DNA of 14,013 nt from a virus. The DNA is taken from the UHGV virus genome UHGV-1734115; one strand, given 5' to 3'. Positions within the stretch are counted from its first letter, which is position 1; the number at the start of each line of letters is the position of its first letter. Position numbers: made by a program. This document shows, piece by piece, positions 3,001 to 6,000 of the stretch.

Positions 3001-6000
3001 GTGTGTTGCTATGCCTAGCGTCGCCCATCTCACCTTCACGAAGAGCATCGCGTTCGGCGGTAAGATTGGCTATTTTGCTGTCTTTGCCTTCCAGCTCAAC
3101 GCGCAGCTTCCCTACCGTTAGCGCAATATCCTCGTTCTCCTGGTTGCGGGATTTGATGTATTGCTGGTTTCTTTCCCGTTCATCCAGTAGTGCCAGCACG
3201 GTAGCCGGGTTAGCCTCTGCTATGAATTCAGCGTTTGCATAAGCCTGAGCATCTGTTTCAATCAGGCAGTTAACATGACATTCTGCAATCACGCCACCGG
3301 GTTCTCCTTTCCATTTTTGGCAAACAAAAACTCCTGTTAAATTGCCGTGCTGGTTAACAGATGTATGCCCTACGATGTAGCTTCCTTTAGTTGCTTTCTC
3401 TGCCGCCTCACGCAGTACCTGATAGTTAATGTTGCTCACTGGTTGCCTCCTTTGCGAAGCTGGGCGGCGATATCTTCGAGAACGCCATCAGAGAATGAGC
3501 GGTCAAAATCGCCTTCCGGCGCATTAGCCATAAACTCAGTAGAGGTAAGAATCATCCGGGCAATATCCGCGGCGTTCTTCGCAGTATCATCAATAAAACC
3601 AGCTTCCCAGGCAGCCAGCATTCTGTTCGCCACAAAGTAAGCGCCCTCCTTGCGTGCTTCAGTCTTCACTTCAGCCAGGAAAGCATCGGTGGCTGGCATA
3701 TTTCCTGTTGCCTTCATGGCCTCCAAAATAACCAGAACGCCATCTCTCCCAACCGCCTCACAGATAACCTCGGTGTTGTCGCCAACAACATCGCAGAATG
3801 CCTGAACTGCCTTACGAGCCAGCGCACTCTCCGCCGCCAGCGCCGCGCACTTGGCCTCCGCTTCAGCAAATTTACGCACCAGATATTCAGCGTTTGTTTC
3901 GTTAACCTTTAAATCGCTTGGGATGCATTTACCTTTCAGGAATCCATCCATCTCAATTAGTGACATTTGTTTCATTTCTTCCCACTCCGCAACATCGCAT
4001 TCAGATATTTGTTTTGATTCACTGACGGAAAAGAATTTCTCTTAAGCAATTCCTCTCTCGATGGCATTGGCTTTACGCGTTGGCGAATAATCATTTCTGC
4101 CGGAAGAATGCCGGGATTGTATGCAAGTCCTCTCATGGTAAATTCCTCAGTCATTACTGATAGCGCCATAGCGTGAGCGGTAATTACGCAGGCGCGGGTC
4201 GATATATTCAGGGAATTTGTCTATTGTCGCTTTTCGCAACGGTCTCATTGCTGTTTCGTTTGTTCGGTCCTTCTCCTGTTTTAGCGCGAGTTGTATATCG
4301 CGTCGGTACATCCGTTCTGCTTTTGTTTCTGGTGTCAGAGCAAGAAACGCGTCGAAATTGTTTTTGATATTCTCCAGCACCTCCGCCTTGGAGCTACCGG
4401 AGCAGTTGCGCGGGTCATCCGCACCATACAGAGGCGCTGGCATAATGGGAGCCTTATTTTCAGTAATCAGAAAGCAGGGTAATCGTTCTGGCTGTAACCA
4501 TAATCATCTGCATGATTCTGGCTTACGTTTTTAGAGCGATTGTCTTTATCTTTGAGGCTGGCAACCATGTCGGCGATAGTTTCTGGTTGCTTGCCTTCTG
4601 CCTTTTCTTTAAGGGTTTGACCTGTTTGTGCAATAAACGGGATGCGTATTTCCATCTGGTAGCTGTCTGCGCCAGTCTTTTTGTTTGTGGTTAATACTTT
4701 CTGGAGCACTAACCCGATTTTCTTTCCATGAAATTCAGGTGCAACAAATTTACTGGCGGAAACCATATGCTGCGTTAATTGTCCAATCCCGGCACACCCC
4801 ATCATGGCGTGAACGACATTTGCGCCAAATTTGTTTTCCGTTCCGTCATTTTTCTGAACACAGACGCTAAGATATTGGATTTTACGGCCGTCGTCGGATT
4901 CTCCAGAAAACTCAATAAATTTGGCTCCTTTTTCTGATTGCTTTAGTTCTGCTTCAGTAATGGTAATGATATGGGCGCCAGTTTCGTTAATAAAACCACC
5001 TTGCCCTGCGGTCAGTGCTGCTTCTTCGTTATAAGTAAAAATCACGTTGCTCATGCGGCGTTTTCCTTAATTTGATGAACATTATTGATGCCGTAGTAAT
5101 CACAAACAGTGGCATCGACGAAAGAGAGATCGTTATCAATCTCATTGGAATCAAACATTCCCATTGGGGATTTGACAGTGTCTGCACCGTTGTTTTTCGT
5201 GGTGAAAAAGAACTGGTCATCGCGGGTAAGAGTGCGAAGAACTATAGTAAACATGCCTTCGACAGTGATTTTCTCGTCCAGCATTTTGCCGATAGTTTTC
5301 ATTTTCACGCGCCCCATAGGGGTTTCTTCGGTATGTGCAAGAAAATAGACTCTCAGGTCATCAGGTGCATCCTGTGCAGCCTTAATCACCTCCCATGCGT
5401 GGCGGCCTATCTCAGTAAATTTATCAAACGATTTTTCTTCTGAGCGGCGCATAAACTCATTGCTCATCACATACTGGAAGTCATCAACAATAACGATTCT
5501 TTTTCCGTATTCGTGAGCACGCTTAATTGCAGCAACTATTACGTCCCATTTGTCAGTGGTAACTACGGTTCCTTTTTTTGCTCTGGCATCCCATGCAAGC
5601 CAGTCTTTTGATTTAAATGGTAGCGGCTTGCCTATTGGTTTTATAAGTATTGCTTCCTCTGGATTGATATTTCTCATGCTGGTTGATTTTCCGGTGCCAG
5701 ATTCACCGAGTATTAATGTCGCAGTTCCCATAATTTGCCTCAGAATGGTAATTCGGATGGGCAGGAAAGAAATTCGCGCTCATTCATGCGCTCTCTTTGC
5801 GCCTGCCATAAACAAAGTTGTTTCTTTGATTTATCTCCCGCTTTACGCCAGTAACGAGCCTCAGCAATGTGATATTCTCTTTTTAATCGACTTAACTCTG
5901 GAGTTTTCGCCAGTTCTACCGGAATCATTTTGACCTCCATTTTCTGTAGGCTTCTACGGCTTCACGAAACATCTTTTCATCGCCAATAAAAGTGGCGATA

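Follow-up and report, generated by a model that had tools for sequence, protein, structure and literature searches.

A Sak4-SSB gene pair in the lambda Red position of the virus genome UHGV-1734115

With what does a lambdoid prophage recombine its DNA when the Red genes of lambda are not found in their place? The question is raised by the virus genome UHGV-1734115, a stretch of 14,013 nucleotides (nt) that we call the window, in whose early-left (pL) operon the gene of a P-loop ATPase is followed by that of a protein resembling the single-stranded DNA-binding proteins (SSBs). A preliminary description had taken these two genes for a Sak4-type recombination module standing in for lambda Red. 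We are highly confident that they belong to a homologous-recombination module of the HK620 type in a lambdoid prophage, transcribed from pL and lying between kil and the ea/DUF genes, in the place of lambda gam-bet-exo. The whole arrangement is already known, having been described between 2010 and 2018, and nothing new is inferred here; the one oddity relative to the known HK620 case is a rare C-terminal tail on the SSB, which ends in NDYPAF.

The gene pair and its HK620 counterpart

The two genes and their junction can be listed as follows:

5051..5731, minus strand: sak4, coding for a core-only RecA-like ATPase of 226 amino acids (aa), a single-strand annealing protein by its equivalence to HkaL
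4467..5054, minus strand: ssb, coding for a 195-aa phage SSB of the DUF669 / N4 gp45 type (the HkaK equivalent, 'SSB-2'), with the C-terminal tail NDYPAF
5051..5054, minus strand: ATGA in which the stop of sak4 and the start of ssb overlap, read from the sequence; translational coupling

Both proteins are as the preliminary description had given them, a 226-aa P-loop protein and a coupled 195-aa protein with an acidic and aromatic tail. The Walker A motif GESGTGKST occupies residues 9-17 of Sak4 and the Walker B region IVIVDDFQ residues 79-86, while the SSB ends in ...HADDYGYSQNDYPAF. The bases ATGA at 5054-5051 are common to the stop of sak4 and the start of ssb, with AAGGA about 10 nt upstream. 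Through this overlap ssb is translated in coupling with sak4, which links how the two partners are expressed. The annotations of HK620, phage TL-2011a and Escherichia coli MS 196-1 show an identical 4-nt overlap, and a 4-nt overlap is also found in prophages of Xenorhabdus and Arsenophonus, where the proteins are 56-58% identical to the window pair.

In phage HK620 (AF335538), the corresponding genes are annotated as hkaM (189 bp), hkaL (681 bp), hkaK (588 bp) and hkaJ (297 bp). The DNA of the module is 97% identical between the two phages, with the divergence concentrated in the middle of abc2. Sak4 matches HkaL at 224 of 226 residues (99%; the substitutions are D42E and A68V), the SSB matches HkaK at 192 of 195 (98%; E153V and D162N besides the change in the tail), and Abc2 matches HkaJ at 60 of 98 (61%). 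The recombination module of HK620 was reportedly treated earlier by Clark in 2001 and by Lopes in 2010.

The HK620 proteins have been studied biochemically. HkaL is a Sak4 protein consisting of the RecA core only, and both its binding of single-stranded DNA (ssDNA) and its annealing of complementary strands depend on ATP (Hutinet et al. 2018, PMC5928155); the same paper shows HkaK to be a true SSB with a distant relationship to N4 gp45. Oligonucleotide recombineering rose 15-fold with HK620 sak4 alone and about 210-fold with sak4 and ssb together, and up to 80% of sak4 genes adjoin an ssb gene (PMC5928155). By transfer from these 99% and 98% identical proteins, the Sak4 of the window would bind and anneal ssDNA with ATP and support recombineering, and its SSB would bind ssDNA and stimulate Sak4.

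Family and predicted fold of Sak4

Sequences were compared with the profile libraries Pfam, PHROGs, NCBIfam and PADLOC, and predicted structures with known or modeled folds. The Sak4 family was represented by Pfam AAA_24 and by PHROGs 2872 and 124. Over its full length, Sak4 matches PHROG 2872 ('Sak4-like ssDNA annealing protein') with E = 5.3e-108; its match to Pfam PF13479 (AAA_24, the family that holds Sak4 proteins) scores 30.4 bits against a cut-off of 27 and covers residues 5-169. In an alignment of 37 Sak4 homologues, G9, S11, G12, G14 and K15 of Walker A and D83, D84 and Q86 of the Walker B region are invariant. None of the NCBIfam models matches any of the four module proteins. A match of Sak4 to the PADLOC profile 'mad8' was set aside as a Walker A artefact, since it spans residues 1-23, the P-loop only, with no significant stretch.

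A sequence search with Sak4 against PDB chains gave no match at E up to 1, and fold comparison was needed. The AlphaFold2 model has a mean predicted local distance difference test score (pLDDT) of 86.8 and a predicted template modeling score of 0.86, and its top fold match is the solved Sak4 of Staphylococcus phage 52A (PDB 8RC5). The next matches are RAD51D, RecA, RAD51C, XRCC3, RAD51, XRCC2, DMC1 and RadB, with kinase-like P-loop proteins such as CobU ranking lower. The model predicts a RecA/Rad51 core fold with no additional N- or C-terminal DNA-binding domain. The assignment of the ATPase to the Sak4 family is thus borne out by the PHROG match, the AAA_24 score above cut-off, the 99% identity to HkaL and the fold match to a solved Sak4; an unrelated P-loop enzyme such as a kinase, which the preliminary description had named as the finding that would overturn it, was not what the comparison returned.

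Family and predicted fold of the SSB partner

The SSB matches PHROG 743 ('single strand DNA binding protein') with E = 5.4e-66, which, like the PHROG match of Sak4, is much too strong to be fortuitous. Its model, built with 35 homologues aligned, has a pLDDT of 81.8 and contains a barrel in which a helix separates strands 3 and 4, as in an OB-fold DNA-binding core, followed by a disordered tail (residues 177-195, pLDDT below 50). The tip of this tail is DDYGYSQNDYPAF, acidic and aromatic and ending in Phe. Foldseek comparison with viral models returned DUF669 proteins and the annotated SSBs of Vibrio phage phi50-12 and Roseobacter phage RD-1410W1-01, with E from 2e-12 to 1e-7; we take both phages to be N4-like. 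On the strength of the model, the partner is predicted to be an OB-fold protein of the DUF669 / N4 gp45 kind. Together with the PHROG match and the 98% identity to HkaK, this agrees with the preliminary view of an SSB-like partner, and an OB-fold is predicted where its absence would have spoken against that view.

The likeness to the canonical bacterial SSB (PF00436) lies in fold and tail: the window SSB has no match to that family in Pfam, NCBIfam or PDB sequences, and a sequence search of PDB chains gave noise only. PMC12315714 likewise treats the HK620-type SSB as a type separate from the canonical bacterial protein. These results bear on a disagreement between PMC5928155 and PMC12315714 over the fold of HK620-type SSBs: the model is an OB-fold closest to PrgE and the N4-type SSBs, though in sequence the protein is no homologue of the bacterial SSB.

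Genes flanking the pair and the absence of Red homologs

Two further genes complete the module:

4147..4443, minus strand: abc2, coding for a 98-aa putative anti-RecBCD protein that would hijack RecBCD through RecC
5740..5940, minus strand: hkaM-like small gene, which heads the module; PHROG 1723, E = 3e-33

With abc2 and the hkaM-like gene on either side, the pair becomes part of a four-gene module of the HK620/P22 style where lambda has Red. The earlier proposal that the pair is the recombination module in the Red position is upheld by the near-identity to HK620 and by the same gene order after kil, and the module is found to include these two genes as well.

Abc2 matches Pfam PF11043 over its full length (121.7 bits; cut-off 25), PHROG 656 (E = 5e-45) and, over residues 1-98, the structure of P22 Abc2 (PDB 8B1T chain A; E = 3.7e-32). 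Work that PMC5928155 and PMC12315714 cite has Abc2 binding to RecC and redirecting the host RecBCD, and the hkaM-sak4-ssb-abc2 module has been described as one that lacks a phage nuclease and carries Abc2 as a RecBCD hijacker of the P22 type (PMC5928155; the 2025 survey of lambdoid Rec modules, PMC12315714). By analogy, Abc2 would be the functional counterpart of Gam, and its presence would supply the module with a Gam-equivalent function; redirection of host RecBCD would also account for there being no phage exonuclease.

The preliminary description had stated that no exo-, bet- or gam-like genes are visible in the operon. By homology this stands: among the minus-strand open reading frames (ORFs) from 120 to 7750 that we took as genes and scanned against Pfam and PHROGs, none matches Exo (YqaJ-type), Bet/RecT/Erf or Gam, and the gaps between these ORFs are too short for exo or bet. 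The statement did, however, overlook abc2 as the probable functional counterpart of Gam.

The Abc2 of the window is a mosaic allele: about 10 residues at its start and about 25 at its end are identical to those of HK620 Abc2, its center is divergent, and the flanking DNA is about 98% identical. Such a pattern suggests that a patch was exchanged by recombination, or that there is pressure to diversify where RecC would be contacted.

The HK620 equivalent of the hkaM-like gene is 189 bp long, which in the window would place the start at the second in-frame ATG, near 5928, and over those 189 nt there are 4 nt differences from hkaM. The label 'recombinase' on PHROG 1723 appears to be a positional annotation only. 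HkaM is described as an orphan in PMC5928155, which also states that it has no homology to P22 Arf; equating the 66-aa ORF with Arf was accordingly rejected.

Distribution, selection and annotation

A megablast search with the segment returned 198 phage records, mostly Shiga toxin (Stx)-converting and other lambdoid phages of Escherichia and Salmonella. Of 5,426 complete E. coli genomes, 303 carry the sak4-ssb pair, in every case on the chromosome. The exact Sak4 sequence occurs on 265 public contigs, the exact SSB on 13 and the exact Abc2 on at least 1000; the 90%-identity cluster of the SSB has 1407 member sequences. Ratios of nonsynonymous to synonymous substitution rates (dN/dS) relative to HK620 are 0.05 for sak4, 0.08 for ssb, 0.25 for hkaM and 0.38 for abc2, values that indicate purifying selection on sak4 and ssb.

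In prophages of Xenorhabdus griffiniae and Arsenophonus apicola, a 226-aa ATPase gene overlaps the SSB gene by four bases, and abc2 was not recognized downstream (the following genes have no Abc2 Pfam family on record). Since the pair is kept where abc2 is not recognized, sak4-ssb can be seen as the conserved core of the module and abc2 as an exchangeable accessory. A second copy in Arsenophonus apicola (CP084225.1; L007, 615-1292) has a 680-bp gap with no called gene directly upstream of ssb, at the position of the 226-aa sak4 in the chromosomal copy (L006); the gap may be a sak4 pseudogene.

In RefSeq the first protein is labeled only 'ATP-binding protein' and the second either 'hypothetical protein' or 'DUF669 domain-containing protein'. 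If the genes were named sak4 and ssb, the annotation would be set right in about 300 complete E. coli genomes and in the records of about 200 phages, of which many are Stx-converting. Beyond annotation the finding matters little. The feature is common in enterobacterial lambdoid prophages.

A proposed mechanism

How the module would act can be pieced together from the literature on the HK620 proteins, which are 98-99% identical to ours, and on P22 Abc2. After induction, pL transcription antiterminated by N would express the four genes. Abc2 would bind the RecC subunit of host RecBCD and alter its activities, so that end resection free of Chi control stands in for a phage exonuclease. The resulting ssDNA would be coated by the phage SSB, which is an OB-fold protein (a tetramer in HK620) and whose C-terminal tip, exposed on DNA binding, would recruit Sak4. 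Sak4 would then bind ssDNA with ATP and anneal complementary strands coated by SSB.

Weighing the explanations

Some of our results weigh against assigning the HK620 activities to this module without qualification. The Pfam profile DUF669 (PF05037) has no match to the window SSB even at E up to 10. Among the relatives of the SSB, which NCBI names 'DUF669 domain-containing protein', the profile matches 7 of 35, all below threshold (best E = 0.019), and because it is not significant we do not file the SSB as a DUF669 member on sequence grounds. Abc2 is only 61% identical to its HK620 counterpart. Finally, the tail of the SSB differs in the last seven codons including the stop (4467-4487), which give NDYPAF in the window and NDYPPF in HK620, TL-2011a and E. 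coli MS 196-1. The penultimate residue is Ala here, not Pro, at a position that we take to be the equivalent of E. coli ssb-113 (P176S). The change falls within the hexapeptide shown to be necessary for Sak4 stimulation: when the last six residues of the HK620 protein (NDYPPF) were deleted, recombineering was 10-fold lower and binding of Sak4 to SSB-coated ssDNA was abolished (PMC5928155). The Ala is probably tolerated, to judge from the relatives, because these end mostly in -PF but also in -AF or just -F (some have DFDDDIPF, as in E. coli SSB). We regard it as unlikely that NDYPAF is a natural allele which, paired with the divergent Abc2 allele, retunes or weakens the contact of SSB with Sak4 or of the tail with host SSB-interacting proteins.

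The pair might instead serve mainly in phage DNA replication, with SSB coating the intermediates and annealing by Sak4 driving the switch from theta to rolling-circle replication and the formation of concatemers. The theta-to-sigma switch has been linked to lambdoid Rec modules (PMC12315714), sak/sak4 and ssb mutants of staphylococcal phages have replication-type phenotypes in work cited in PMC5928155, and the window encodes an O-like initiator and a DnaB-like helicase with no other SSB. Against this, the module sits in the pL recombination slot and not beside the O/P replication genes. We consider a mainly replicative role possible, if well short of an even chance, and it is compatible with recombination as the function, since both would rest on one molecular activity, the annealing of ssDNA coated by SSB; it is a different emphasis and not a different mechanism. 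The predicted RecA/RAD51 core fold might also suggest a true recombinase for strand exchange, forming filaments and invading duplex DNA, all the more as 52A Sak4 forms filaments in the cryo-electron microscopy complex 8RC5 (PMC11846896) and as HK620 sak4 and ssb together raise post-conjugation recombination 20-fold (PMC5928155). The 99% identical HK620 Sak4, however, gave neither strand exchange in vitro nor stimulation of RecA in the experiments described in PMC5928155, and the 226-aa protein is core only, with none of the C-terminal DNA-binding domain of RecA, which makes strand exchange quite improbable.

Two other explanations would take the pair out of recombination altogether. Related prophages have frameshifted neighbors, such as the Ea22-like gene in MS 196-1, and the window is itself a mosaic, with at most 57% of it covered in one place by any complete E. 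coli genome, as might be expected if the genes were inert remnants in a decaying prophage. Yet each of the four module ORFs is intact, plausible ribosome-binding sites precede sak4, ssb and abc2 (hkaM has no evident one), the dN/dS of sak4 and ssb is 0.05-0.08, and the exact Sak4 and SSB recur on the 265 and 13 contigs counted above; we hold decay to be very improbable. That the ATPase is an unrelated P-loop enzyme for phosphorylation, packaging or loading, that the downstream protein is not an SSB and that their juxtaposition means nothing for recombination is scarcely credible, being already refuted by 99% and 98% identity to the experimentally characterized Sak4 and SSB of HK620, to which are added the solved Sak4 as top fold match and the PHROG E-values of 5e-108 and 5e-66.

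Neighboring genes

From the pL side, the order of the early-left operon on the minus strand is N, sieB, ral, cIII, kil, hkaM-like gene, sak4, ssb and abc2, as in HK620. The genes upstream of the module are:

7406..7750, minus strand: N antiterminator, at the head of the early-left operon; Pfam N_peptide, 112.9 bits, residues 23-114
6808..7389, strand opposite to the operon: sieB
6394..6594, minus strand: ral
within 6031..6231, minus strand: cIII; Pfam Lambda_CIII, 104.5 bits
5925..6038, minus strand: kil, just upstream of the hkaM-like gene; marks the position of lambda gam-bet-exo

The real start of N is probably an internal ATG near 7678. In the region 5925-6231 (minus strand), two longer ORFs overlap, and cIII and kil form their C-terminal parts: Pfam Lambda_Kil scores 74.1 bits on residues 44-74 of a long ORF, and the annotations of HK620 and MS 196-1 give a kil of 114 bp. 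The cIII protein has about 46 aa, as in HK620, and is shorter than that of lambda, which has 54 aa. Consensus matches alone mark a promoter-like site at 7897-7869 and, in the stretch that separates N from the module, terminator-like hairpins at 6405-6384, 6257-6240 and 6219-6200 (all minus strand). Downstream of abc2 follow a DUF2737 protein, a 179-aa protein of no assigned function, Ea22-like and DUF551 proteins and two antirepressor-like genes.

Other parts of the window drew our attention as well. Between pL/N and the cI-like repressor, at 8126-9144 (minus strand), abutting genes for proteins of 111 and then 227 aa occupy the slot of lambda rexAB. The 227-aa protein has a CCDC90-like coiled-coil match of 27.5 bits, below cut-off, and an apparently hydrophobic C-terminus; the 111-aa protein has no Pfam or PHROG match, and neither protein matches PADLOC. 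They may be an exclusion or defense pair expressed in the lysogen. At 11294-11411 (plus strand), inside the O-like gene (10920..11810), two clusters of three 11-bp direct repeats (TTGTCCAACGG) lie about 66 bp apart, the iteron arrangement typical of a lambdoid origin in the initiator gene; in the protein they give the peptide CPTVVQRLS in duplicate. The DnaB-like helicase gene is immediately followed by an endonuclease gene (13318-13929, plus strand) with HNH_3 and AP2 domains, an architecture like that of homing endonucleases.

Comparison with known systems

The nearest system is HK620 itself, in which the four genes hkaM-hkaL(sak4)-hkaK(ssb)-hkaJ(abc2) have the order and the position after kil/cIII seen in the window; the lengths of sak4, ssb and abc2 and the ATGA overlap are equal as well. 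The rest of the phage is different, with other immunity, N and replication genes.

More distant relatives are known for each protein of the pair. The 52A Sak4 (8RC5; PMC11846896), despite its fold, has only 14% sequence identity to the window Sak4; it is known as a target of the SaPI2 repressor Stl2, and no comparable interplay with a satellite is known for the enterobacterial clade. PrgE of plasmid pCF10 (PDB 8S4S; PMC11137577) is 13% identical to the window SSB and does not carry the C-terminal tip like that of E. coli SSB found on the HK620-type protein.

The arf-erf-abc1-abc2 genes of P22 share the architecture and operon position of the window module and include a homologous abc2. Like the window, P22 has no phage exonuclease and redirects the host RecBCD (PMC5928155, PMC12315714). 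Its annealing protein, however, is Erf, which is Rad52-like, whereas that of the window is a RecA-core ATPase, and P22 Abc1 is unrelated to the window SSB (PMC5928155).

The gam-bet-exo genes of lambda Red occupy the same slot of the pL operon, downstream of kil, and do the same task, in that RecBCD is neutralized or redirected and ssDNA is then annealed. There is no relationship of sequence or fold between the two modules. Annealing of the window type would, unlike that of lambda Red, depend on ATP and on a dedicated SSB and use a RecA fold; the window module has no 5'-3' exonuclease and Abc2 would modify RecBCD, whereas in lambda Gam blocks it. The pair is a compact ATP-dependent alternative to Red-beta for recombineering, a use already explored (PMC5928155): libraries of annealing proteins have been screened (PMC12054835), and at some loci the HK620 pair reached recombineering levels comparable to those of Red-beta (PMC5928155).

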